Shown: piece by piece, positions 3,519-64,000 of the stretch
Numbering within the stretch: the first letter of the stretch is position 1
Layout of the letters: every line of letters begins with the position of its first letter
From: Paragordius varius
Taxonomy: Eukaryota; Animalia; Nematomorpha
DNA: 64,000 nucleotides
Direction: 5' to 3'
Assembly: GCA_964247055.1 (NCBI GenBank)
Contig: OZ176054.1
Location: 6,696,001-6,760,000 of the forward strand
Position numbers and translations under genes: made by a program
Notes under the pieces: generated by a model
Databases searched by the model: none
What the model was told of the DNA's origin: nothing
The model's input: the letters and a program-made list of their open reading frames with translations, nothing else

Positions 3519-5274
3519 ATGAGCACAAAAAGAGGTTGTAAATTCAACGATGAATTAATGAAAGATTTTCCTTTTATCAAAAAAACGAAGGATGAATCAT
3601 TTGTTAAATGTCTTATATGCGAGCGGGAATCCTAGCACATGGCGGCAAGCATGATATTACAAAGCATATGGAATCACAGAAACATAAAAAATGTTTAGAT
3701 ATGGGGGCATCATCTTACAAAATGAGCGATGTTTTTCGAAAAACCGCTTTTGGAGAGGAAGAAAAGAATTTGGCACTAGCTGAGGGCGTGTTATCATTTC
3801 ACGCCGTTAATCACAATCATTCCTTTAGATCTATGGACTGTACCTCACAGGTTATTCGCACCTTATTCAATAAAAAAATTTACATGTACCCGTACAAGGG
3901 CTGAAGCCATTGAATGCAATGTCCTTTCGCCACATGCATTTTCTGAAATACAAAAAGATTTACTGAAAATTAATTTCATATCGCTATACTTTTATGCATC
4001 TCACAAGGAAACAAAATTATTTCCCAAATAAGATATTTTGATCCAGAAACTGGAGTAATTAAAATTTCAGATTTTATTTCGCTACCCGGTGTAAATTCCG
4101 ACATAAGTTTTACTTCAATAATGAATATTTTAGAAAATAATAATTTAAAAGACAAAATTATCGCATATTGCGCTGATACCATTACGAACTTCGGTGGAAA
4201 AGCAAGGAGGGGAACAAAAAATATTTTTCATAAATTACAGATAATCCTAATCAAAACATTATTGGCGTTGGATGTGCAGCGCATTTGCACAACGCTATTT
4301 TAACAGCTACTGATTTGTTACCCCTAGATGTGGAAAATTTAGTTATTAAAATATATATCTTTTTTATATATACACGGTACGCGTTGAAACGCTTAACGAA
4401 TTCTGTGAAAATGCTTGGATATTGTAAAACTCGTTGGTTAGCTCCTCTGCCAGCTATCAAAAGAATTTTAAAAATGTATGATTCTTTAATATCCTACTTT
4501 ATATCACAGGACAAATGTCCTACAACTTTGGAAAAGTTTTTTGAAAGTGATTCTTTAAAAATATGGTTAGAGTCCCTACATAATCAAGCTTCTCTCTTTC
4601 AAAATGTTATTAAATTGATAGAAGGTGACAAAATTTCGGCAATTGAATTAGTCAATTAAGTTAGAACCTAATTCCAATGTCAAGAAAGGTTAGAAAATAA
4701 TTTTATACCATTAACCATCCGCAATTAATTTTGAAAAACAAGGCTTAATAAATCGCCAAGATATCCTGTACCATATAAAAATGTTTTATACAAACTGTAA
4801 AGATTATTTGGAAGACTGGACGACGCAATTCAATGAAATTGATCATTTTCATTGAATAACATTAAATCCATAATTTAATTGGTGCGATGTTCAAAAATCA
4901 TTTGATTATAACTGTTCCCAAAAATTCTTAGTTAAAAGATATATAAATAATGAAAAACTTATATGGACAAAAAAATATACAGTAGAAAAGAAATGGCTGG
5001 AAATATTTCATCATTTTGAAGCCAACTATATTATATACAATAATATTTAAAGTGGAATTTTCACTATCTTTACCTGGAACCAACGCTACTGAGCGCGTTT
5101 TTTCCATAGGTGTGGACATCGGAAAAATCAAATTTAAATGTTGAACCTTTGAAGGCCGTTTTATCTGTCAAATATAATTTGACAAATTCTTGTGAATACT
5201 TCTACAATATTTTAAAAAATGATGACAATCTGCTAAAACGCATTCACTCAAACAAAAACTATACCAAAGAATAA
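3519..5274 (+). pseudogene. hAT transposase pseudogene
   Basis: BED-finger-like CLIC...HGGKHDITKH...KH, IAYCADT, the CxxH motif GCAAH, TRWL, and the C-terminal dimerisation motif SLPGTNATERVFS. Multiple frameshifts and stops. Confidence 0.9.
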
Positions 5275-5294
5275 AATATATTTCTTATATTTAT

Positions 5295-6140
5295 AAAGTT
5301 TTTATGTTAAAAAATATACAAAATTACTTAAAATATTGTACAAGTCTTCATAATTTGTCAAATTATATTGGAACACATAAAATGGCACTTATTCAACATT
5401 TAAATTTGATTCCTTGTCCTTACTTAATTTACTGTGGAAAAACGCGTTCAATAGCAGTGGTTCAGGTAAAGATAATGCAAATTCTACAATTAAAATATTA
5501 TTGTATGGAACATAATTTGTTTAAAAATGAATATATTAACCATTTCTATCCTACGTATTTTTTGTCCATAATATAAGTTTTCATTCAATATATTTATTTA
5601 ATAATGAGACTCCATAAAAAAGTGTCATTGTGCACCGTCTTGTCTTCCAAATAATCGTTTCTGTTTGTATAAAACATTTTTATATTCTGGCTATTCATTG
5701 AGCCTTGTTTTTCTGGATGCTTTATAATATTGCGATTAGGTAATATTATAAAATCATTTTCTAACCTTTTTCGACTTGAAATTTTGACCTTGGTCCTGTG
5801 ATAAAAAATAGGATTCTAGGAGATCACATTTTTATAAATATTTCGATCGCTGGCAAAAGAGCTAACCAACAGTTCTACAATATCCAAGCATTTTAACATC
5901 TATATTTTCCACATCCAGGGGTAACAAATCAGTAGCTGTTTGAATAGCGTTGTGTATCTACCAATAATGTTTTGATTAAGATTATTCGCTAAATTGTTAA
6001 AAATATTTTTTGTGCCGCTTCTTGCATCACCCAGCCCACTTTGTGATGATTTCGTCTTTATTATTTTTTTCTAGAATATTACAATCACTTCACCCTTTGT
6101 TCGTGCACTAAATTTATTGAATAAGGTACAAACAACCTGT
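5295..6140 (-). pseudogene. Inverted, internally deleted second copy of the same hAT transposase
   Basis: The reverse complement aligns block-wise to 3845-5275, e.g. acagctactgatttgttacccct.gatgtggaaaat, atgcttggatattgta, ataaaaatgttttatacaaac, aatataatttgacaaatt. Confidence 0.9.
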
Positions 6141-7212
6141 AAGGTACAAATTTTTTTATATTTATAATGTATTTGTGTTAAAAATAAATAAATATTACAA
6201 TAAATTTTTTGTACAAAAATTTTTGGTGGTACCCCCCAATGACCCCCCCCCCTTCTCAGATTTGTCCCTTTTTCCTTCAAAAAATCTGGTCACCTTACAT
6301 ATGGTACAATTTTTATTTCTTAAAAGATTTTTTTTCAGGTCCTCTATTGTATGGCTGTTGTCAAAAAGTATTGAGGCGCCGTTGTTAGACAGAAACGCTA
6401 TTGTCGAAGTACTATCGACAAATGTTGCGGCCCAGTGTTCGGCAGAGGTGTTGTTAAATTATTATTATCCGAAGGTGTTGTTGTCGGATTACATGTAAAC
6501 CAATTACTATAAAGGGAATGTTGATTTATTTACATAAGAAAAGTAATAATATGTGTTACATTAAAACATTCTATAATATATATCATATGATCACATATAA
6601 TTACATCACAATATCAATTATCTTAAATTTTGGGCCGACGTTGTTTAGCAGTAAAGTGGGATCGGTATGATTAGCATTTTGCAATATGATTGCAACCTTT
6701 CTCGCAATTATTGTATGGTAAAATTTTCTTTCAACTTTCGTTTTTTATATTGAAAACCGCTAAGTTTAGGCATTCCTGATAATACAAATTTAATTAAAAT
6801 GATTATTTTTCTTATTTGAACTATTATCATATTCTACTCATCTAGATTATATTACAGAGCAAACGATTGATTGGATAAAACTTAAAAATATTAAAGCTTT
6901 AGTTAAACCGGAACCATTTTAGGGTTCGATTTTAAGTCCGTTTTTTTCTGATTACAATTCCTGTTCCATTTTTTAATCAAGAACTTTTTTTCCAAAACGG
7001 TTCCACTATATTTTGATCAAAAATCTTAATTTTTTATTTTTTGAGGCAATAGATACAAATTATACGTTAAAATGGCCATGAAAACAAACAATATAATTGT
7101 TTAACCGGTTTAAACGTAACTCTAATCCACTTATCAATATTGATTTATAAAATATATTTAAGGGCCATATGTTAAAATACTTTAAGACCTGGATACAACA
7201 CACTCATTTTAG

Positions 7213-7746
7213 TCCTTCGATTCAAATTGGGGTAGTTGGATACCCCAGGCCTGTTTAAAATCAAATACTTTAAAAAGTATGCAAGGCATCGAAACCATGG
7301 CAAAATTTTGCACTTATATAACATTAATAAACCGATATATATAAAAAAAATTATTCACAAACACTAGATATTACTTATTTTAAGCTAAAACCAAAAGGTC
7401 AAAATTTTGGCAACGTGACATGTGTCAAATTTTAAAATTTAAAAAATAATACAAGATAAACCGCTTTTTCTATTTCCATCAATGTTGGATGTAATTTATA
7501 TAAAAATTAGCTTTAGTTTTACTCTTAAAATTAAATGAAGACGATATTTTGCAAAAATTTTGTAAAAAAAATGGCGTCGAAGTAGTTTCAGATGGAACTT
7601 TTTTTTCAAAACAAAATTTTATTTAGATATTTTGGCATTCGTATAATTTTTATCAGGATAGAAGCATAAATTTGAATTAGGACTGTTTCCTTCAGTAGTT
7701 TTTTTTAAAAATATTAATTTAAGATACCCCAATTTGAATCGAAGTG
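7213..7746. mobile_element. piggyBac-like MITE, copy 1
   Basis: TIRs cttcgattcaaattggggta / taccccaatttgaatcgaag. TTAA on the right and TTAG on the left. Homologous to 10496-10935 and 30286-30680. Confidence 0.7.
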
Positions 7747-8364
7747 TTAAGCTGTGCATTTTGTATCTTAATAATACTTGACATGTATCAAAATTATATA
7801 ATCATATTTGATTCCTCTATAATGGATAATGGAATAATGAAAAAAGAAATATAATTCCAAGAAGAAAAGAGTAAAGTTGCTATTGCCAGCAAAAAAATGG
7901 TTTTAAGTAAAACAAAAAAAGAAAAAAAGCACGGCATAATATATGTAGTTGATGTACCATGTCCTCAATTGGGATAGAAAAATAACCATTTATTTAGGAA
8001 TTCGATATTGTAATATAAATTTAAACATTAACATAATGGGTGACATTTATAATTTTGAAAAGAAAATTAATATAAATAATGATCATATCCTTATATCTGA
8101 CACTTTGGTGATTTAAAGCAAATATTTTAAGGTAGGGCACATGAATGATATAAACAGGTTGAGGTTTAGAAAGGTACGAAGATAAAATGAAAAGACATAA
8201 TAAATAAGAATATAAAACAGTTGTTAGATTTAAATATTGATAATAAAGGAGAATTTCGATCAAGATTCAGGGTCATGACTACTCATAACTGGATAATTTT
8301 TTATGTATTGTTTAAAATAATAACTTTTCAATATCTATTTTTTAAAAATTAATATTTTTTGATA

Positions 8365-8433: not shown

Positions 8434-9394
8434 CCCATTCTATAGTTGGTAGATTAAATCCTATTGGGTAACTTGTTTATTTTTTGCTATTCCCTAAATT
8501 TTAGCATTCCCATTCAACCGACGTGAATCTACTACATTATTTTAAAAGTATTAATGGTAAAAAATTATTATATATATAGAGATTTTACAATTATATTGAT
8601 ATTTTCAGGGAATTTTTTTATAGGTATAAAAATTTAAAAGCAATAATTTTTGATACCGCAATCCATTATTGATCTGAATACTTATTTATAATCTATTTCT
8701 ACCAAGTAATATCAATTATTGACATATATGTACGTAATAATCTTAATGAATTGAATTAAACATTGACATCTTGTTTGAATATTTGTAAATTAATAAGTAA
8801 TGTAAGGGGCACATCTTCCACATTTATAGCCTTTTAATGTAATAAATCTTATAAAAAAAGTTTCAAAGGTGTTAGAATTCTACTCTAGAGTTTAAATAAG
8901 AACGTAAAATCCCAGCCATAATATCATATTCCGCATGAAATATAAATTATATATTAAAATATATTTATTTACATAATGTAAAAACGATAATATTTTATGT
9001 GAGATAGCTTTATATTATATTAAAATATATTTATATTCAACATGTAATAAAATAAATGCCAATATTTAATTAATTGTAAATTTTATAAAATATATTATGT
9101 ATCAGAAACCATTATGCATTTAAAAATATTGAGTATATAATAAATAAAATTTTCGTAAAGTTGACAAAAACTTCTGTATCATCTTGCGCGTCTTGCATAA
9201 TAATTGACCGTATATCATTCAATTGTAACTTGATTTGAGGTTAGATGGATAATGGGCATCTAATTCCAATATCAAATTTTTAAGACTGTTAAATTGCAAG
9301 TTACATGTTTTAATATATTACAATAATTAATAGGTTTTTAAAAATTCAAGAGATTTATGAATATTGGTTAAGATTCTCATAGAGTTATGGCACG

Positions 9395-10399
9395 TTATTC
9401 ATTTTCTAATGTTGTTTTATTGTTTATATCGGAAGAGGATGGGCTATCACATGCTGGGACATCCAAAATTATTTGATTTTCTTTGGCCATTTTCGATGTA
9501 TAATTTTGAATGGCTTTGCTATATAGTTGATTTAATGAGCATAAATCAACCTTAGGATGGTTTAAAAATATTGATAAATCTAAATTCTTAACATCTTCAT
9601 TCTCACAAATCAACATATCGAATTGAGTTCTAATTTCAGGCTTAAATGAAATTACATTTGAATTATCTATAGTCATTTCTAACTTTAATATTTCATCGAG
9701 TCTTTGTTTTGATGAAAGCAATCCTTCATTATAAGTTTTATATATAAAATCACTCACTTTAACTATATTATTATTATTATAAGTTTTGGAATTAATTATG
9801 ATGGCTGCCTTAAAAAACCTTATTCTATCTTCATCATCAAAAGTTTTGGATGTCCCATCTACTTCGATAAATCCGTGTTTGGGAACAATACTAGCTGCTC
9901 CTGGAGCTCTAAAAGCAAATGGAAAGTTTTTAGTTGAATTAGAATATTTTGCTTTTCCAGTTAATTTTCTCTTATTATAAATATCTACACAAACATAACC
10001 GTAGAAATAGGCAATTCTTGGGAGAGTAAAAGTTTCCGGATCTTTTGGCTTCCCAGAAATATTAAACAATTTGCTCAGCATAATAAAATTTGCTTTTGTC
10101 ATCCCGTTGGTTTTCTTCAGTATATTTTCTGGTTTAGTATCTACAACACAGTATAATAAAACTAAATATGCCATATGATAAGTAAAATTTTTAATAGTTC
10201 CATCCGACCAAGTTTTTTCATGGACAGTTGCAGATTGTTGTCTTGCATTAGCAATTGCAATCATAATCAAGGGATCATAACTTGGTGCTTCCATCATTTC
10301 TAAGTCTTCAATTGTGAGAAGAAATTTTGTATTTCGAAACATTGCATCAACTGCTTCAAAGGATCTTATTAATTCGTCAAGGCTTTTAAAATTTTCCAT
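9395..10399 (-). CDS. Endogenous viral element: Phenuiviridae (phlebo/tenuivirus-type) nucleocapsid-like protein, intact 334-aa ORF
   Basis: Uninterrupted ORF with ATG context aacATGg. Motifs fall in the order and approximate spacing of phenuivirus N: SYDP (GFDP), LVLLYCVVDTKPENILKK (LxLxxTRGNKxxKxxKK), LFNISGKPKDPETFTLPRIA (YxLxxxxxxxxDLTLSRIA), NFPFAFRAPGAASIVP (xYPxxMMHPxFAGLID), GLLSSKQR (SFLTxxQR). By-eye alignment only. Confidence 0.72.
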   Translation of the reverse strand: MENFKSLDELIRSFEAVDAMFRNTKFLLTIEDLEMMEAPSYDPLIMIAIANARQQSATVHEKTWSDGTIKNFTYHMAYLVLLYCVVDTKPENILKKTNGMTKANFIMLSKLFNISGKPKDPETFTLPRIAYFYGYVCVDIYNKRKLTGKAKYSNSTKNFPFAFRAPGAASIVPKHGFIEVDGTSKTFDDEDRIRFFKAAIIINSKTYNNNNIVKVSDFIYKTYNEGLLSSKQRLDEILKLEMTIDNSNVISFKPEIRTQFDMLICENEDVKNLDLSIFLNHPKVDLCSLNQLYSKAIQNYTSKMAKENQIILDVPACDSPSSSDINNKTTLENE

Positions 10400-10416
10400 G
10401 TTAATAGATTAATTAT

Positions 10417-10471
10417 CTTAAAATGTTGAACGGCTGATGATTTAATGTTTTAGAGTTAATTGAAAGCTTAC
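10417..10471 (-). other. Candidate 55-nt spliceosomal intron in the 5' UTR of the nucleocapsid-like ORF
   Basis: On the minus strand it reads caa|GTAAGC...aacattTTAAG|, ending 17 nt upstream of the ATG at 10399. Confidence 0.45.
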
Positions 10472-10495
10472 TTGAATACAACACATTCATTTCAG

Positions 10496-10935
10496 TCCTT
10501 GGATTCAAATTGGGGTTGTTGGATACCCCAGGCCTGTTTAAATTTAAAAACTTTATAAAATATGTAAGTAATTAAAACCATGGCAAAAATTTGCACTTAT
10601 ATATTAATAAACCGAAATATATAAACTTATTTATGAATACAAAGGTAAAAATTTAGTCGTAACATGTGTGCAATGGCTAAATTGAAAAATAATACAAAAT
10701 ATACCACTTTTATTTATATCAATGTTATATGTAATGTTAATAAATAATTAGCTTTAATTATAGCTTTAAAAATAAATGAACACGATATTTGCAAAAAAAA
10801 TTTAAAATAAAAATGGCGTCTATAATTTTTATTAGGATAGACGCATAAATTTAAAACGAGAGTGTTTCTTCAGTAGTTTTTTAAAAATATTAATTAAATT
10901 TAGTCTGAGGTATTTAGATACCTCAATTTGAATCG
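10496..10935. mobile_element. piggyBac-like MITE, copy 2 (same orientation as copy 1)
   Basis: Colinear with 7213-7746 along its length (ggataccccaggcctgttta, ccatggcaaaa.tttgcacttatat, aaaaatggcgtc). Right TIR is cctcaatttgaatcg. Confidence 0.75.
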
Positions 10936-20216: not shown

Positions 20217-23200
20217 AATATATATACTATATCCATCAATACATGAAATATAGAATGCAAAGAAACATCACCTAGCCAATCAAGTCTATTCCTTATTTAA
20301 TAACACTAGACAACAAATTTTAACTTTTTTTAACTGCCATTCTTGTAAATTTAAAATTTATTTCATTAAAGTACATAATTAATATATCTGAAAAGAAAAT
20401 TGGTCTAGCATGGAAGAATTTTTTTATATTAGAGTTTATCGATAATTTTTGGCCCCGATTTAACATTAAACTCGAAATTTCGAAATTTAAAAGTTTTAGA
20501 TATGAAGCCAAGTATTTTATATCATTCGAAAGAGCGCAAAAAACTGCATCTTTTAAATGGTAGTAAGTCATTTAAATCAATCGGATGTAAAAGTTATTTG
20601 GATTTAAATGGTCGAAATTTTCAATCCTTAAATAAGTAAATAATTTTCACAGACAAACTAATTTGAAAATCATATAAATTATTTTAATATAATTATTAGG
20701 GTTATATTAGTATTTAATTTTAAAAAAATGTTTGAAAAAGCTTTTGGCTTGCTTTTTTAATAAAAAATATTATTATCATAAATATTTTACCTAGTGGATA
20801 CTAAAATGCATAGTTATAACTGTAAATTTATTCCATAATGGCTATAAAAGAATAAAAATACCTTAACTTTGTTTTTATCTTTAAAATTTCGAAATTATCA
20901 GCATTATAAAGAAAATAAATTAATATTGATGAGATGGTAGTTTTTAAAAAACGAAAAAATTAAAAATAGCTGTTTTGAGTGACATAAAAGCAAAAAAAAA
21001 TGTTTTAATCAAAAAAACTTTCTTGTGTTATCTTTTTTGGACATTCATCACCATCTAAACAAAGTTTGAGCTATTTTCATCCATTAGTTTTAAATATATA
21101 ATAATTAAAAAAAAATGCTCTCGCTTCGCGCGTTTGTCGCTCTTTCTGTCCAATATTAAGTGTCGATGTAATACATATTAGTATGCATTTTATAGAGTTT
21201 TTATTACTCTTTCGAATGATATATTACAAATGGGCATTACTTGTATATTTTCATAAAAAAACATTTTTTAGTAAAATTTTGATAAAGAGGGCGCATAATC
21301 AAAAAAATCAAATTATACAAAATTCTTCCAACGAGTTATAATTTTTTTTTCAGATTTACTGTTAAAATGATACTAAATATTAGAAAATGCAAAAAACTCG
21401 AGTGGCAGAAAAATTTGTTGTCTAGTGTAACTTATGGTAAAACAGAGTCAATTTTACCGAATGACAAAGGATATAGGTGTAGCTACGATTGATTAAATAA
21501 AACGATTAAAATCAGCTTGTGAAACACAGATGAAAGGCGATGAGGGAACCAAGCTGTGAGATGAATTGTTTATTTGGCTCAGCAAACCCTAAAGTAGAGA
21601 GAGAACAAAGCAGATACCCTATTGGGAAATATGATGGTATTTCAGTAAGGCTTTGTGGTCGGTATATTTAATATATAAAAAACACAGATTTTTCGAGAAT
21701 ATATATGACTGCTTTAGCCCCTCATTTCGAGGAATTTCCTTTTTCCGTACAGGTGTTCAGGGGAAATTGGGCGCCTTCCATGCGGGGTTTTATGAAATAA
21801 AATGGTCTCTTGCGCTTTGCTTTAGGCATCTGTTTTAATAAACAAGCAATATCGTTTTTAAGCATTAGTACCTAGGGTCTGGTCAATAGTTTCTAAATAA
21901 TTTATTCTATGCCCGTGTTTACCGTCAAAATAATTTTTATAGCATCTTGGGACACATTGCCTGATCCCAAACGGTTAGCCTTTTTGGGACGAAAAGAGAT
22001 ATTAATAGCATTAGTTATACTCAATCACTAAAGTGGATATATATGTAATAGAATCAACTATGAGAAGTATTATAAGTGCAAAAAATTGGCCGACCTGTTA
22101 TCCAGATTGGCCTTCGCATTTTAAATTCTTATACAAGCATGTGATTTCAATTTCCTTATCAAATAGTAACTGACGATGCCAGGTGCTTAAACAAAAAGAT
22201 TCGAGCCGATGTTACTAAAATTAAAAAGGCACATCCGCGTCACATATAAACCAAAAACCAACGGGTTGGTAGAAGGAGTAAGACAAACTTTGAAAACTAA
22301 ACAGAAATCACCATAGTTAAATCATGCATATAAAGCTACGAACGGCGTTTTATAATGCTACAGATGCGCTTTGTATCCAAAAGATCAAGTTTTCAGCTCT
22401 ATCTAGTGGTTAAAGTCGAACCCGGCCAAATTTATAAAACCTTAATTAGAACGTCGCCGATTTCAGCCCAATCAACATATCTACTTATGAAGATAGATAG
22501 AGTCAGCCGAACACAGGTGGATCAGCTTCAAGAAAAATTATAACATATACGGATACTGATATGGCTCTCGGAGTTGTGACATACTTCATAGCCAATATCT
22601 GCAGCTGAATTCCAAAACATTACAATCTACAATCGACACCACCCTCACCCCAGAAACGATTACTCCGGTAAATCAATGTGCATTATTTCTTCTTTTCTAA
22701 AGAGCAAATAATAACAAAATACTTGCGCCTAAAAATTCTAACACATTTTTAACTATAATAATTATATTTCAGGATATGTTCTACGGGTATCATAGTAATG
22801 ATCAGTGAGTATTTCAATATATTTGAGATTTCTAATTCGTTTTAACAAATGGAATTTATCAGGAAATATTTATCATCAATGATTACAAAACACAATTAAC
22901 GCGAGAATCGTAAAATATAATTAGCCGATGTAGTGTGTTACTTTCCCTTAGAAAGTTACCAAAACTATAATGTTCGTAAAGTTAGAAATTAATAAAAGAC
23001 ACTTTTGGGTAGAGATCTTAATCCCAAGATTAACTTGCCACACCATAAACGTGAAATAATTATATATTTGTAACATATAAAAGTAAATAGGTTATTTTGG
23101 ATTGGATACTTGTTGGAAATAAGAATGACTAATGAAAAAGATTATATTAAAAATAAGCTCATTCGTTACGAGCAATCACCTTTATTATCATCAAAATAGG

Positions 23201-23785
23201 AATTGCGATTTCAAATAATTTTCAAGGTGACGATAATCTACCCAATTCGTAAAAACACAAAAGTGTAATTATATAAGTGTGGTATCATTACTACTTAATC
23301 CCGACAGTTCCGCTTCTGTTATTATTTTCCGCGTTTAAATTTTTTAAACAACTTTAAAAACAGATTAGATATTTCATCCAAGCTAAAAGCAAATTAAATT
23401 TCCGATCCGATGTATTTCAATGTCATCAGATTATTTTTGTCCACACAATCGACCAGGGTTTCTGCAAACTTATAACCATTCATAGTGTAAGTTTGAGCTG
23501 TTTTTACCAATAAAAGTAAAGACATAATAATTTTAAATTTATATAAAGATAATTTAATCCCACTCACAAGATATATAATTAATTGCCTTTAGAATTCGAC
23601 AGATTTATATGTTAAACCAAACCACGATAGCCGATCATTTAATTAACTCGTTTTATTAACTATCTTTAATCATTTCAAAATAAGTTACCATTTTCAAATT
23701 TATTAACACTCGAACTATATAATATCTACGTATAACTTTGATCGATTAATTGCCAATTCACCTGATATCTTCATTCAACATACAC
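20217..23785 (+). mobile_element. Decayed Gypsy-like fragment (copy 2), interrupted by a CACTA-ended MITE
   Basis: 20217-20303 matches 1-97, and 21428-23785 matches about 98-2125 with an unmatched stretch at about 22680-23160. PKTNGLVEGVRQTLK lies at about 22255. Confidence 0.75.
20304..21427 (+). mobile_element. CACTA-ended (CMC/EnSpm-like) MITE, 1124 bp
   Basis: TIR cactagacaacaaatttt / aaaatttgttgtctagtg with a 3-bp TAA TSD. The empty site is visible in the paralogous block at about 85-105 (ttatttaatagcttatgg). Confidence 0.9.
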
Positions 23786-23869
23786 TTGAGGAATATATGT
23801 TATTTTTTAAAAAAAGTTGATGTTCTATGAAAAGGATAACAAACGTAGATATTTGTTAACAATTAATAA

Positions 23870-24933
23870 GATAGATGCAAATTTTTCTGCCACTCGAGTT
23901 TTTTTTTAGTATCATTTTAACAGTAAATCTGAAATAAAAATTATAACTCGATGGAAGAATTTTGTATAATTTGATTTTTTTGATTATGCGCCCTCTTTAT
24001 CAAAATTTTACTAAAAAATGTTTTTATTTGAAAATATACAAGTAATGCCCATTTGTAATATATCATTCGAAAGAGTAATAAACACTCTATAAAATATATA
24101 CTAATATGTATTACATCGACCGTTAATATTGGACACAAAGAGCGACAAACGCGCAAAGCGAGAGCATTTTTTTAATTACTATATTTTTAAAACTAATGGA
24201 TGAAAATAGCTCAAACTTTGTTTAGATGGTGATGAATGTCCAAAAAAGATAACACAAGAAAGTTTTTTTGATTAAAACATTTTTTGTTGCTTTTATGTCA
24301 CTCATTTTGTTTTTTAAAAATTACCATCTCAATATTAATTTATTTTCTTTACGAGGCTGATAATTTCGAAATTTAAGGTATTTTTGATCTTTTATAGCCA
24401 TTATGTAATAAATTTACAGTTATAACTATGCATTTTAGTATCTACTAGGTAAAATATTTATGATAATAATATTTATTAAAAAAGCAAACCAAAAAAAGCT
24501 TTTTCAAACATTTTTTTTAAATTAAATACTAATATAACCCTAATAATTATATTAAAATAATTTATATGATTTTCAAATTAGTTTGTCTGTGAAAATTCTT
24601 GACTTATTTAAGGATTAAAAATTTTGCCATTTAAATTTAAATAACTTTTACATCCGATTGATTTAAATGACTTACTACCATTTAAAAGATGCAGTTTTTT
24701 GCGCTCTTTCGAATAATACAAAATACATGGCTTCATATCTAAAACTTAATTTTCGAAATTTCGAGTTTAATGTTAAATCGGGGCCAAAAATTATCGATAA
24801 ACTATAATATAAAAAAAATTCTTGCATGCTAGACAAATTTTCTTTTCGGATATACTATTTATGTACTTTAATGAATTAAATTTTAAATTTACAAGAATGG
24901 CAGTTAAAAAAAGTTAAAATTTGTTGTCTATTG
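23870..24933 (-). mobile_element. Second copy of the CACTA-ended MITE, inverted
   Basis: The reverse complement is colinear and highly similar to 20304-21427. Ends are slightly degenerate (ttgttgtctattg) and flanked by TAA on both sides. Confidence 0.9.
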
Positions 24934-25168
24934 TAATTAATTAGGATTATTAGCACTCAAATGGTCCAAAATCATTACATGTTTAGGGACCAACTTGCAT
25001 TGAGTTATGATTAATCTTAAATTTTAAAAACCAACTTGAAAGGAACCGATTTGCTTCAAGATTTAAAAGGTAAAGGCAATAAAAGTAAGTTTGGAATTTA
25101 ATAATTAATATATATATTAAGATTTTAAATTTGGCTAATGAAAAAACAAACAGTTTATACAAGATAAA

Positions 25169-44438: not shown

Positions 44439-45027
44439 ATGTGGCAAAATTATAGTATAGAAAGTATATTAAATTCCTCTACACCTAATTTGGGTACCGG
44501 TACTGCACATTCCAGTATTTTACACGGATCTCAGATTGAGTTACCCAAAATAAATTTTCCCATGACGGCCGCTTCGGCGAATGTAAATAAACCAATATCT
44601 AATAATTATAAAGACCCATTGCTACAAAAAAAAATGCCTGAAAAAATCCTTCCTAGCGATAATAAGGTGACATCCAAAATCACCATAAATACAACACCAC
44701 CAATACAACCACCTACAACTAGGAGTATTACAACATCAAATGAAAATAATAAAAAACCTGATACGAAAAGACGCCTGATTGACGAAAACAGTGAACATAA
44801 TTCTATTAAATTTACAAGAAAAAATGAAAGTGTCGATATCAAAAACCCTAAAAGAAAAAAATGGACAAAAAGGGCTAATATCGTCACAAATAATGATAAT
44901 AGCAAATGTTCAAACACTTCGTCAGGCACCACGACCCACAATCGAAATGGAAAAACTATAGTTTTACCCCCCAATCCTATGCCAGCTTGGATATTTTGCA
45001 CGAGATATTCCGACAGACCATCCTCAG
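44439..45027 (+). CDS. en: Engrailed homeobox gene, exon 1 (eh1 and EH2)
   Basis: eh1-like YSIESIL at residues 5-11. EH2 MPAWIFCTRYSDRPSSG ends at the conserved engrailed intron position (tcag|GTATTT, phase 1). Confidence 0.95.
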
Positions 45028-46935
45028 GTATTTTAAGAGTTTAAAAGGCCCAAATAATATATAATTTTTAAAGTATATAAAATTAATTTCAGGGTTTGAA
45101 TAATTAAAATTTGTTGCTATTTACATGTGCAATGCCAATCAAATTTTATTGGAAAATATTTTAAAAATGCCCAATACCTTTTGAGAGCGTATATCGTGCA
45201 TAACCCTCCTTTTTTAAAGCATTGCACGAATATTTAATATTGACACATTGGGCTACGTGGTGTTATAGAACCAGGTGTAAATTATTTTTCTGTATTCAAT
45301 GTGTAGTTCACGACTCTATATAAAATTTTAAATATTAGTTTAACAGCTATACTCAATTATTTATTCCAACCAATCTTATAGCAAAAAATATATAGGAGTT
45401 CCTGGTAAAATATTAGTGTGTATGTCTTAAATTTCTTTATACGAGTCTTGCCTTGTCCGAAAAAATAATGCTATTAAATAAACTCAAAAATTTGTTTTTT
45501 ATTCTTAAAAATGTCAAAAATAATTTTTGTGTTTGATAAAACAATTTATGACTTTTCAGTATACTCTGCCTTTCTCTCTCCTTAATGAGTGGTTTTGTTT
45601 TAGATTTGTGCATCCATTATTATTTTAATAATCTTATCTTATAAATAATTTTTTGAATTAATTATTATTTCATTCTTTATGTTACTTTTTAAAAAACTAT
45701 GTTTACTAACATAAACGGAATAATAAATGCATCAAATATATTTATAATGATAATAATATAACATATCTAATTTACAAAAAATGTGTCAAAAACATTTTTC
45801 TCTTTCCACTATTAAAATTTAATTTTATCATCCATTATTTGAAAAAAAATACCTTTAAAAAATGTTTTATAGAAAAAAATGTACATTAAAAAATTATACA
45901 ATTATATATATATCAACGCATATTTTAACATATATAGATATTTAGAATTAATTATGATATAGCTTTAAAAACAATTTTAAACCGGATAATTTAATAAATA
46001 TTTAAGATTTTTTGCAATTTTAAATTAGGTTACAATGTAATCAAGGTTCCAAATTTAGATATTAAAATTTATTTCTATCAAAAAAATCTAGTTAACATTT
46101 GTTATTATGGATAAATAAGTTTTTATGGATATTTTAAAAGCAAAGGCCAAACTATTTGGCATATCTTTTATTAAAACAAATGGTCCATTAAATAAAATAG
46201 ATGTGTTTTCCAATCATTAAGTTTTATGTAATTTTTAAATATTTTATCAACAAACACCTCTCTAAACAATATACTGATGAATTTATTTATTCTTTGTGTG
46301 ATATTTATTACTGATATAATTACGATTTGTTGTCTCAAACTATATTAACTTACAAAACTGGACTTACTCATTTTTTGAAAGGCATAAAAAACTCAAACTA
46401 CTGTCACTAACCACCACTGTTTACGTATTATTTCGTTAAAATTTACAACTTTTTTTTTGGCTTTTGAGCGTGTCGTTTTTTTTATTTAATGAAGGCCAAA
46501 GTTATACTTGTTTGAAAAGTACAGTATATATAACTTAATTTACACAACACATACAATGAAATAAGCTTGTTGCATAAATCTTACAATACATTTCTGAAAC
46601 CTTTGAAATAAAATGTAATATAAAACTTGATATCAAGAGACAATTATTTATTTTTGTCCATACTATTTTTTAACTTGATTATCATAAATGTGTTTAAAAC
46701 TGCAAATTATAGAATAAAAATAGATATAAATTGGTAAAACAATCAATTATATTTAAAATTTTGATCAAATAGTTTATGTTAAAGAAATTGCGAAAACGTA
46801 TGGGTGTTTTTTTTTAAAAAATACATTTTTTTTCGTTATAACGTTTTATCTGTATAATTGTAATTTTTACTGCAATTATTTGAATCTGTTTTGATTCTGT
46901 ATAGATATACTATGTTTATATAACTGTTTATGTAG

Positions 46936-48137
46936 GATCTCGCGTTAAACGAAAAAAGAAAACACTGACATCAACCCAAACACCCAAAATGCCCAAAATA
47001 TCAAATCACAAAATGAATGATTTACTGCCTGTAACTTGTTGTGAAAGCCTACCGCCTCCTATTGTTTCTCCTGTGGATGCCCTCATGTCTTTTACTTCTA
47101 TGCTAACTGAAAGCATTAAGGTTCCTGCCCATGCTAATACATTATTATGTGGGGATGGTATGGTCGCTATTGACAACATGAAATGTGAAAAAAACAAGGA
47201 ATCAGTAGATATGTCTGATAATGATAAACGTCCACGGACAGCTTTCACCCATAGCCAATTGCAAAGGCTTAAACGGGAATTTATTATAAATCCCTACCTC
47301 ACTGAGGCACGACGTCGAGACCTGTCTCGAGAACTCCAATTAAACGAGAATCAAATCAAAATTTGGTTCCAAAACAAACGGGCCAAATTAAAGAAAAAGA
47401 AGAAATGTATAACGCAAGGACAACTGTCAAAAAACCAAGAATCTCCTCTGCTGGCTACAAAAAATAATTTAGCATGCCAAGTATCATCATCAACCACATG
47501 TTCAACATGTTCAGAGGACCAAGAAATAGATTCAGAGCCTGAATCTAACAACCTCAAAGGGCTAAATGTAGAAAATTTGGAAGAATTTAATAAGCAAACC
47601 ATTGATTGTAACAACCATATGAATTCAGATACTTCCTCCCCTGCTATTTCATTTCTTTCCCCAAATATAAATAATGGTTCAACTTTAGGCGTTGGCCATC
47701 ACAAAAATGAAAACGTAACAGTAAATAGCAATAAACTTCACTCCAATATAAATCCAGATGCGAAAATGCCCATGAAATCCACCAATAATTCAATCGTTAA
47801 GTTATTTGCTTCAGAAAATTTACCAACCACAAATGACACGATAAAAAGTGTAAAGAGCATCACAGAACATGTCAATGTGATCAATAATCCAGCATCATAT
47901 CTATACAATTTTTATTACAATTTTTTACCATCCATATTTTCAAACTACCCTAATTTCAATATACTTAACAATGTTTTAAGACACTCTCTTTTACTAAAAC
48001 ACCACCACAATATGGCACAAACTATGCACCACCCATATAATATTCAAATGATCACTAATTGTTTGAATTATAATTTTAATCAAAATTATGAACATAATCC
48101 AAATATCGCTTCCCTTTCCAATAGCATATCCAATTGA
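46936..48137 (+). CDS. en: Engrailed homeobox gene, exon 2 (EH3, homeodomain 47223-47402); joined protein 596 aa
   Basis: TGTAG acceptor at 46935 gives in-frame [11 protein letters not shown]. Homeodomain [20 protein letters not shown]...[28 protein letters not shown] is diagnostic of En. Confidence 0.96.
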
Positions 48138-57651: not shown

Positions 57652-58332
57652 ATGAATCCAACAAAATTTTCTTATGAATATTTGAAACCCGATGATAATT
57701 TTGAGGCGTCCAAAAGTTTAGATCCATCCCTTGTTTCTGCCTTCCTGTATAACTATTTAGCCTTTAATCATTATTTAGCAGGGGTGCAATCACTTTTAAA
57801 AAATAAATATAATGTCAACGATTACCTCCAATTACAACTGGGTGCTGGAACTAATAACTCTCCGAAATCGGCGGAATGTAAACCTAAAGAAAATACTATA
57901 GACAAAATAGAAACTAGTTTTGTTAAAGATCAAGAAAAATGTGAAATATTTAAAGAATCGTCAATAAAAGCTCCTCATCTTCTCCCGCCAAATCCCGATT
58001 TTCTCCATTCTAGAGAACGTAAAGAACAAGTTTATGATGATATAAAATATTGTGGATCCGTTGCTTCAGATTATGAGATCACAAAAAATTCCAAAAATAT
58101 GACCGATGATTTAGATAGCACAGAAAAATTGCATGAAAATATTTGTGGGAATTCCAATAGGCGATGCAGAACAGTCTTTACAGATGGTCAATTGATGGGT
58201 TTAGAAAAAAATTTCTCAATATACAAATACCTAAACACGGCTGAAAGAAATAAGTTAGCACGCAGTTTGGGTCTAAATCAAACGCAAGTCAAGACTTGGT
58301 ATCAAAATCGAAGGATGAAATGGAAAAAAGAG
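57652..58332 (+). CDS. Barx: Barx-family homeobox gene, homeodomain exon (start ATG tentative; an upstream exon is possible)
   Basis: Homeodomain [19 protein letters not shown]...[31 protein letters not shown] carries the Barx signatures QLMGLEK and [13 protein letters not shown]. Donor gag|GTAGAT follows KWKKE. Confidence 0.9.
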
Positions 58333-59509
58333 GTAGATGTTTGGGGATTATTATGATTTTACCATTGTTAAATGGGTTAAAAAATCTCTTAATAGTTTTT
58401 TCGCTTTATAAATCCGACCAATTTTTTGCCAAAAATATTAATATAAATTTAGGCAGAGTGCTACAGTTTTTTCATTTAGTTTTTTGAAATCGGGGCTTCT
58501 TTAATTTTTTTACTAAGAAAGCTGTCCATAATAAAAATTTAATATTGCCTTATGTTTACGATAAATTAAATATACAAGAATAGTTTTAGTTAATAGAGAT
58601 GGTTTCGTCAAAATTAAAACAAATAATTTAATTCAAAAAATTACATTTTTTTGTAAAATGGTATTAAATTTTAGTTGATCATGCCATAAAGCTTTGATAA
58701 GCATTTCGGTATATCTTAATACAAACCAATATAGATGCATAGCTTGGATTTCGGGAGTTAATTTAGTCAAACATAAACTATTTGAATATGGATAGTAAGA
58801 GGTTAACAAAGAGTTTTCGTCAGAGATGACTAATTAAATGTATTGATATTATATGTTAAATAATCCAATATAGGAAAGCCTACAGTTATAACTTTATTTA
58901 AATTGGGCGTAAATATTACTTTTATACTAAAGTTGTGTTTTTCAAAAAATTGATAGGTCGTTATCAGTCAATTAATCCACATTGCCTATTTTCGGATCCA
59001 ACCCTACTCTGTACCTATAACTATATTATATCATTAATATTTTTGTATCTTCAACTTAAGGTTGTTAATGTGTAATTAATTAGAATATCTTGAATATAAA
59101 AAATGATTTTAAGCTTAATTAGCATGATTTTTAAAAAATGCTCTCAATAAAATTAATTAGGATGATTCAAACATATTTTTGATTTGTACTCCGTAAATTA
59201 AAGAGTTAAATAAAACTTTTACATAATTATAAATGAATATGTTATAGCTGAGTTAATTATAAATATTTAAACTATTTGATATGTAAGCAATTAAAAGTAA
59301 CAAAATAATAAATTATTAAAGAAACGAAGTGCAAACTATGCGCTAATTATTTACACATGTTTGATAATTATATATTATTTTAATTAACACCATTAAAAAA
59401 ATATATAAAATTGTTACAATGAAAACTTAAAAATAACGCTTTTTAATTTCCAATAGGGTAAAATAAATGAAATTTTAATGAAATATTTTTAATTTAATTT
59501 TTTGTAAAG

Positions 59510-62774: not shown

Positions 62775-63398
62775 CTGTATAAAACATTGATAAAATTATT
62801 ACAAATGTGAATATTCCCAATACAATTTCATCATTTTAATAGAGCAATTGATTAATTAAAAAATTATTGCGAATAAAATGGTATATGCAAAGTAGTAAAT
62901 ATGACAATATATTACTGTAAAAATGTATTTAAATTTATATAAAAGCATAATTCGTTGATAAAGAAATAAAAATGAAATTGGCATAAACTTATTTACCTAA
63001 ACATGAATCATAAACAAAACACATTTAAAACATTTTTATAAATTATGCTTTTTTGATTTCTATCTAATTTTGAAAAACATATAAAAATTCTTTAAAGACA
63101 CAAATTAAGTTATAAATTTTAAATATAAAAGACAATAAGACAAATATTAAAGACAACCCAATATTTTAAACCATGATTTTTAAATATAACTTATTGTTTT
63201 GAGTGTAAAAATAATAGAAACGTTAATGACAACACACTACTATTACATATTTTACATTTATTATTATAAAGAAAAAAAACAAAAAGTTTCAAAAAAGTAA
63301 AGCAATCTGTATTTACAATACCGAAAAATATTTGTCTTTTAGTTTTTACATTTTTGTCTTTATAATATTTTTTTTTGTGCAAAATCCCTCTCATTTAC

Positions 63399-63598
63399 CA
63401 ATTAAGGGTGGGATTGCTCCAACCAAAGCTCCTATCCACGTATTTAGTATACTTTTCCGTTTCCATCTGGTGTAAATACCGGCATATAGGATGGCATTTC
63501 CAGCAGCTAAAACTGTTGAAATGGGGTTACTCGTGTAAGCCATAAGCAAAGTACCAAGGGTAAAGACCGTAACTCCAAAACAAGTAGCATGTAACGGG
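63399..63598 (-). CDS. COX10: COX10 exon (upstream exons lie beyond the window)
   Basis: PLHATCF...YTRWKRKSILNTWIGALVGAIPPLIG matches the UbiA/COX10 motif. TTTAG acceptor and g|GTAAAT donor. Confidence 0.95.
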
Positions 63599-64000
63599 CT
63601 AAATTAATTCATTAATTAATTACATAAAAGAAAAGTTTATTTAGAGTCTCCATAAGAAGGACTTTTGTAACGGTTTATAAAAGCTAAAACTCTCACCTGA
63701 TTCAAGGTCTGACTTGAAAAAAATCTAAACTGTAGATTTAAAACAATGATTGTTATTGCCCCAGCATAAAAATGAATAAAAACTTTTTATAAATCATCAA
63801 CACAATAAAGTTTTTCTACTGATACACTTAAAAAATGGCTTAGGTAAAAAAGCGTTTTTAACATACACACAATGCCTACCTTATTGTTGGTTGATTCGCA
63901 TTATTGTTGGCCAATTGGCAATACAGTAGCGTATAATAATTTTGTCCATAATTAATAAACAAATTTATAAATGTTGTATAATGGGAAAAATAGTTTAATT

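Follow-up and report, generated by a model that had tools for sequence, protein, structure and literature searches.

The open reading frame (ORF) at positions 9395 to 10399 of the window, the whole 64,000-nucleotide stretch of DNA that was analyzed, is an endogenous viral element (EVE) of non-retroviral type: host DNA surrounds it, a transposon relic is next to it, and it has no polymerase or viral termini. Judged by transitive sequence homology and a predicted fold, its product is almost certainly a homologue of the nucleocapsid protein (N) of the Phenuiviridae, and from its sequence composition we put the chance that it has been kept by selection at about even. The features of the locus are:

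8668-9394: 3' flank, rich in AT, with neither a poly(A) tract nor a further ORF
9395-10399, minus strand: intact ORF, Phenuiviridae-type (Tenui_N-like) nucleocapsid homologue (ORF call and sequence homology)
9398-9598, minus strand: acidic C-terminal tail of 67 aa with one predicted helix (286-308) and no fold assignment (model)
9599-10399, minus strand: residues 1-267, homologous to full-length phlebovirus N with arm, core and C-terminal helix (alignment and model)
9839-9871, minus strand: beta-hairpin by prediction (residues 177-187) and probable insertion when compared with the nearest relative (alignment and model)
10016-10027, minus strand: TLPR, counterpart of TLSR; each of the 36 rows has the same T, L and R (alignment)
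10133-10144, minus strand: VDTK, counterpart of RGNK, differing from 35/35 comparators at the R64/G65 positions and keeping K67 (alignment)
10271-10282, minus strand: SYDP, counterpart of the GFD motif, its G position differing from 35/35 comparators (alignment)
10289-10399, minus strand: residues 1-37, putative counterpart of the N-terminal oligomerisation arm (alignment; model pLDDT 42-53)
10400-10469: 70-bp spacer upstream of the ATG, with an in-frame stop just upstream and without a viral terminal octamer
10470-10935: decayed MITE-like host repeat of high copy number, which resembles the copy at 7187-7767 at 75-85% and has one of its terminal repeats truncated

The uninterrupted frame of 334 codons reported by the first-pass annotation was confirmed from the ATG at 10399 to the stop that ends at 9395 on the minus strand. 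At 0.073 stops per codon, chance alone would give the window about 1e-7 frames of this kind. The neighbouring transposon ORFs had been described as broken, and in the six repeat-derived relics the longest open frames are indeed just 67-141 aa. Pfam named none of these relics, which we take from their motifs to be transposons. Across the six frames of the window no further piece resembling N is conspicuous (next-best segment E 0.075-0.11, n=642 segments). The GC content of the window is 21-36%, and an engrailed-type gene, a BarH/BARX-like homeobox exon and a UbiA exon within it point to an AT-rich bilaterian host.

Taken directly, the ORF gave no Tenui_N (PF05733) match listed up to E=1 in a Pfam scan and misses the gathering cut-off of that family (25 bits) on its own. 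Direct searches of PDB sequences and of viral contigs and a word-seeded homologue search were also blank, and the ESM Atlas gave leads only (best 0.82). Homology was instead reached over a bridge. A HMMER scan of 1.84 billion representatives returned only two proteins at E<=0.001, P0122 (E 4e-5, 28% identity) and P0123 (E 2e-4, 27%), both of which exceed the Tenui_N cut-off (E 4e-21 and 4e-13, respectively). P0122 and P0123, which come from Logan contigs of 958 and 999 nt, are single-member Tenui_N proteins without a name. When a three-sequence profile was compared with 15 phlebovirus N proteins, hhalign gave a probability of 99.1% over 203 columns, and all 13 sequences that this profile matched in the PDB were N proteins; in a homologue search it retrieved P0123 only. 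No virus closer to the ORF than 28% was found in the word-seeded, viral-contig, 1.84-billion-representative and three-sequence profile searches. A metagenome scan with P0122 had no matches, and the count of RG conservation given below is thus limited to 35 rows.

A profile of 34 phlebovirus N proteins scored the ORF at 11.1 bits, above 2000/2000 global and 1999/2000 local shuffles. We rejected this phlebovirus-only profile as stand-alone proof of identity, since the reversed ORF scores 9.0 bits. Our first profile had included a phage frame (L012), which scored -2.2 bits against the ORF, and alignment A3 omits L032 (stop in range) and L051 (partial). A tree of 15 of the 36 rows was saturated, with terminal branches of 6-10, and gives no placement. 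The proposed comparison with PF05733 was therefore negative as a direct scan and positive through P0122/P0123 and the profile-profile match, and the ORF is best described as Tenui_N by bridge homology and predicted fold, not formally by Pfam score.

The predicted structure is consistent with this assignment. A single-sequence AlphaFold model of the ORF had a pLDDT of 33, and a model made from the 36-row alignment reached 63. Residues 12-267 of the latter superpose on residues 1-245 of RVFV N (Z 15.1, rmsd 3.6, 208 aligned), and the same Z was obtained against SFTSV N, as compared to 5.3 for the next row. The model matches phlebovirus N in the PDB, and its top BFVD match is the N of Gouleako virus. 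The structural check against RVFV N thus came out positive for a model built from an N-rich alignment: 33 of its rows were phlebovirus N, so the fold match is biased, and the sequence bridge is free of that bias. From the model, the core N fold is predicted to be retained. Taken together, the bridge, the profile-profile match and the superposition bear out the Phenuiviridae-type identity first claimed for the gene, whose product is predicted to work like, and to descend from, a Phenuiviridae N.

The embedding of the gene in animal DNA, also claimed at first pass, is supported by sequencing run X1, in which one 1832-nt contig spans 9200-10499 and joins the ORF to both non-coding flanks, free of differences and gaps; the assembly may itself derive from X1, which is hence perhaps not independent. 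On the 3' side of the ORF positions 9200-9394 were aligned on this contig, and the start of the flank at 8668 was taken from the record offset. On the other side the contig enters the very high-copy host repeat by 30 letters, one short of our bridging rule, and X1 contains this repeat at very high depth. The depth of the contig (406) was not taken as copy number. The copies at 7187-7767 and 10470-10935 are members of one MITE-like family of very high copy number, whose terminal inverted repeats measure 43 bp, and loose ends of the family in the sequencing runs suggest that its ends are flanked by TTAA. The ORF stretch was present in 4 of the 11 runs listed, none of the 4 being listed as an RNA run. 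Run X6, a further sample of the host species (organism A), shares next to no sequence words with the stretch, which speaks neither for nor against. Runs X3 and X4, from other organisms (B and C), contain identical pieces of it (depth 2-6) along with the host repeat. As orthologues these were rejected, being identical and of that depth and accompanied by the host repeat, while run X5, also from organism B, has neither; they are probably carry-over.

The first-pass annotation had seen no polymerase, glycoprotein or genome termini nearby. Two of these absences held: there is no polymerase in the window (among the matches listed, the best tblastn hit of 69 L frames had E=0.021, and the best profile hit E=0.09), and neither ACACAAAG nor its complement occurs between 7.5 and 12 kb. 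For the glycoprotein the absence stands by Pfam scan only, in which 116 of the window's 120 stop-free frames of at least 62 aa gave no viral family and no glycoprotein, and a decayed M relic may be present. No target-site duplication was detected, as the longest word shared by the flanks is 8 bp, a length reached in 488/500 random placements; the 8-bp direct repeat at 9380 and 10451 was rejected as a candidate because it is at chance level. There is no poly(A) tract near the stop, and the nearest Gypsy-like relic lies 7 kb from the ORF.

The motif order reported at first pass holds, the ORF being collinear with phlebovirus N through SYDP (residues 40-43), VDTK (86-89), TLPR (125-128), FP..P (159-166) and IIN (201-203). 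Homology to N stops near residue 267. In the arm region helices 7-23 and 30-34 are predicted with low confidence. Residues are numbered by L036, which matches residues 1-231 of PDB 3ouo/3lyf, and the functions of RVFV N residues are those given in Table 1 of PMC5764413 and in the portions of PMC4974529 drawn on here; that table lists Y30, R64 and G65 as RNA-binding. The ORF keeps the counterparts of D34, K67, K74, R106, A109, P147, I180 and N181, and has Y for F33, likewise found in 5/33 phleboviruses. Changed are Y30, G32, R64, G65 and F149 and, less surely aligned, L126, P127 and F176. The RG pair at 64-65 is present in 35/35 comparators, both nearest relatives included. Two of the three residues of the basic triad R64/K67/K74 are retained (K89 and K96, with V86 at R64), and 11 of the 42 phlebovirus-invariant columns are kept, as compared to 20 in P0122 and 15 in P0123. 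The core is basic (31 K+R vs 22 D+E) and the tail acidic (6 K+R vs 11 D+E). What is predicted is thus an N-fold core that is still basic at its surface and has a remodelled groove, which would make RNA binding weaker than, or altered from, that of viral N.

Long residence under selection had been argued at first pass from the tail, the core residues and the intact frame. The tail of about 70 aa is real when compared with phleboviruses (67 aa), and the length of the protein is ordinary for phenui-like N: 28 of the 50 BFVD targets listed, which are viral N proteins, have at least 330 aa. Since so many viral N proteins reach this length and a chance read-through of 67 codons into host DNA has P=0.006, the tail is most simply viral in origin. 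Divergence at core residues carries no weight as a sign of domestication, as working viruses also lose one basic RNA-binding residue: in the parts of the reports concerned, the N of working rubodviruses has just two of the three, the number found in our ORF (PMC6724010), and tenuivirus N varies in the region of the RNA-binding motif (PMC4377212). The intact frame, taken by itself, is compatible with a recent insertion. Intact EVE frames can reflect recent insertion, as stated in the relevant section of PMC2987831, and in an isopod crustacean 30/54 EVEs were without nonsense mutation, which the corresponding passage of PMC4231630 interprets as recent.

Without selection, a copy is as likely as not to have broken once divergence reaches 0.5-1.3% (indel ratio 0.1 to 0), and any sign of deep residence would therefore point to selection. 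Such a sign was sought in the dinucleotides. At codon junctions the observed/expected ratios of the ORF are 0.89 for CpG, 0.88 for TpA, 0.84 for CpA and 1.08 for TpG, as compared to medians of 0.32, 0.47, 1.30 and 1.59 in 33 N genes, all from phleboviruses, and of 0.30, 0.70, 1.37 and 1.34 in 69 L frames, these being the loci with an open frame of at least 250 aa out of 120 L loci among the matches listed. The whole window has CpG 0.99 and TpA 0.88. None of the 33 N genes reaches the CpG and TpA values of the ORF, which are reached by 2 and 7, respectively, of the 69 L frames listed. A combined amino-acid-corrected statistic was -0.08 for the ORF, with medians of -2.46 for N genes and -2.12 for L windows; 0/33 N genes and 2/141 L windows among the matches listed came up to the ORF, and on this scale the host exons score -0.8, not 0. 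When third positions were redrawn, the share of viral windows reaching the ORF was 0.014 at 20%, 0.10 at 60% and 0.54 at 100%. Suppression of CpG/UpA is kept in 33/33 N genes and in 67/68 viral L loci among the matches listed.

The sole unsuppressed one among the 68 L loci listed is L095, a viral contig of 6145 nt with a phenui-like polymerase frame. Both matching L windows come from this one AT-rich virus (GC3 0.16), the one that lacks suppression among the 10 L loci listed with GC3<=0.28. The ORF itself has a GC3 of 0.21, vs 0.38-0.58 in the 33 phlebovirus N genes and 0.26-0.31 in three host exons, and a GC4 of 0.24 that is equalled or undercut by 23 of the 69 L frames listed, while its synonymous codon use fits 8/36 viral L frames better than the host exons. 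The counts are small (8 CpG observed vs 9 expected), giving P=0.054 averaged over the viral values. The donor lineage, with nearest relatives at 27-28%, could resemble L095 in its dinucleotides. The lost viral signature thus gives modest support to long residence: we judge the likelihood ratio to be about 3-10, and with a prior that we ourselves estimate at about 0.2-0.3 selection comes to roughly even odds.

We tentatively propose, at somewhat less than an even chance, that the N gene of a deeply divergent Phenuiviridae-like virus was copied in, likely long ago, and likely held open by selection, with a product predicted to bind RNA. A viral N mRNA would have been reverse-transcribed by a host retroelement and then integrated, and over a great age its synonymous sites would have taken on the composition of the host, with purifying selection holding the frame open. 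The ORF would be expressed in the host, and the protein, by prediction, retains the N core as well as some of the basic groove and would bind RNA without sequence preference, more weakly or differently than viral N. That the locus is an anciently domesticated phenuivirus-type N, with the RNA-sequestering fold retained as a protein of the host, its groove rebuilt and its tail acidic, we hold to be just short of evenly probable.

The same gene may also be a recent unselected insertion, a plausible reading only slightly less probable, in which the N mRNA of this animal's own unsampled, AT-rich phenui-like virus was reverse-transcribed and integrated too recently to decay, and the tail, the groove changes and the low GC all belong to the donor. 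Intact EVEs are common and often young, this ORF starts where viral N starts and has a length normal for the group, a tail that is hardly read-through is more simply viral, one AT-rich virus is without the dinucleotide signature, and the relatives too have lost over half of the phlebovirus-invariant columns. Speaking for age are the signature that nearly every viral L locus listed and every N gene keep and the ORF does not, the RG pair that both nearest relatives share with all other comparators, and the lack of a target-site duplication, poly(A) tract or adjacent retroelement as marks of freshness. Artefact is very improbable, whether as misassembly, as contaminant or as a host gene unrelated to viruses: the blank Pfam scan, the score of the reversed ORF, the possible origin of the assembly from X1 and the short reach of its contig into the host repeat would agree with it, and against it stand the strong transitive homology and a contig that joins ORF and non-coding flanks without difference in a run rich in host repeat.

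Two readings would give the locus a role in defence. By analogy with ground-squirrel itEBLN, the product could be an antiviral decoy that co-assembles with cognate viral N through its arm and poisons the ribonucleoprotein with its altered groove. The changes do fall on the RNA-binding positions Y30, R64 and G65 of RVFV N in a core fold that is predicted to be retained. We consider this unlikely, as itEBLN is 77% identical to its target and, in the part of PMC4964890 that deals with it, the mode is called rare by its authors; here no virus closer than 28% came up in the searches above, a gene of great age would have diverged from the virus it targets, and the arm is modelled at low confidence. 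The first-pass annotation had named a dominant-negative factor and a host RNA-binding protein as possible functions, and if the gene is old the former is the less likely. Less probable still is that the locus acts at the RNA level, as antisense RNA or a piRNA template with an incidental open frame. The captured phasmavirus N gene odin is expressed in antisense only, according to the section of PMC6620529 concerned, sandfly rhabdovirus N EVEs give piRNA profiles in the excerpt of PMC10974309 used here, and 22% of our window is repeated within itself. A function of the RNA does not maintain a reading frame, so the insertion would have to be young, and against this speaks the dinucleotide pattern; there are also homeobox genes in the same window.

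When set beside Phenuiviridae N itself (PF05733; RVFV N 3lyf; Gouleako N), the ORF is alike in collinear homology, in a predicted fold at Z 15.1 and in the kept counterparts of K67, K74, R106, P147 and N181; it differs in a structural identity to named N proteins of just 10-18%, a sub-threshold Pfam score, changed counterparts of Y30, G32, R64 and G65, the hairpin insertion, the 67-aa acidic tail and its coding in host DNA. Integration of N alone in an invertebrate genome is also described for the phenuivirus-like N EVEs of ixodid ticks, which, in the passages cited (PMC10675110; PMC2987831), cluster with known Uuku-, Ixo- and Phlebovirus, whereas our ORF is at most 28% identical to any relative found and belongs to a host that is AT-rich and evolves fast. 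Similarly, odin of Chaoborus americanus is a bunyavirus N coding region captured alone by an invertebrate, although the cited part of PMC6620529 presents it as derived from Phasmaviridae, in tandem copies, fixed, transcribed in antisense only and near a living virus, as compared to one copy in our window. EBLN, including itEBLN, share with the ORF an intact N-derived frame from a negative-strand RNA virus in an animal chromosome, and are the model for protein-level co-option in the section consulted (PMC4964890); they differ in deriving from bornavirus N, a different family, and in having orthology, selection and expression behind them. NlToEVE14 of planthoppers is likewise a non-retroviral EVE of an invertebrate, one that has become a host protein, and it differs in the Toti-like origin, the exon-intron structure and the knock-out phenotype given in the cited part of PMC10636211. 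No report of protein-level co-option of a Tenui_N gene was found in the open-licence literature (without supplements), which argues weakly for its absence.

The element documents, even should it be young, a very divergent, unsampled phenui-like lineage (27-28% identity to the nearest proteins found) in a poorly sampled animal, and as it escapes standard Pfam screens, fossils of this kind go undercounted. If the element is old and selected, protein-level co-option of negative-strand virus N would extend from bornaviruses to the phenuivirus fold, and nature would have supplied an example of an RNA-sequestering groove remodelled to serve the host.

Elsewhere in the window, the engrailed-type homeobox gene has two exons on the plus strand (44439-45026 and about 46935-48137), with engrailed as best matches (68% over the domain); the usual C-terminal engrailed motif PF10525 was undetected, and there is no close relative in the database. 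The second homeobox exon (57652-58335, plus strand) has BarH-like/BARX 2dmt as its best PDB match (E 9e-23), and the UbiA prenyltransferase exon is at 63394-63603 on the minus strand (E 4e-14). Two decayed plus-strand copies at 95-2130 and 21428-23786, presumably integrase-like from their motifs, are 73-77% alike, and the latter is flanked by 1.1-kb inverted repeats (20294-21417 and 23878-24943, 90% alike). At 3600-6150 there are two broken relics in opposite orientation, 71-81% alike, which we assume from their motifs to be hAT-like transposases.
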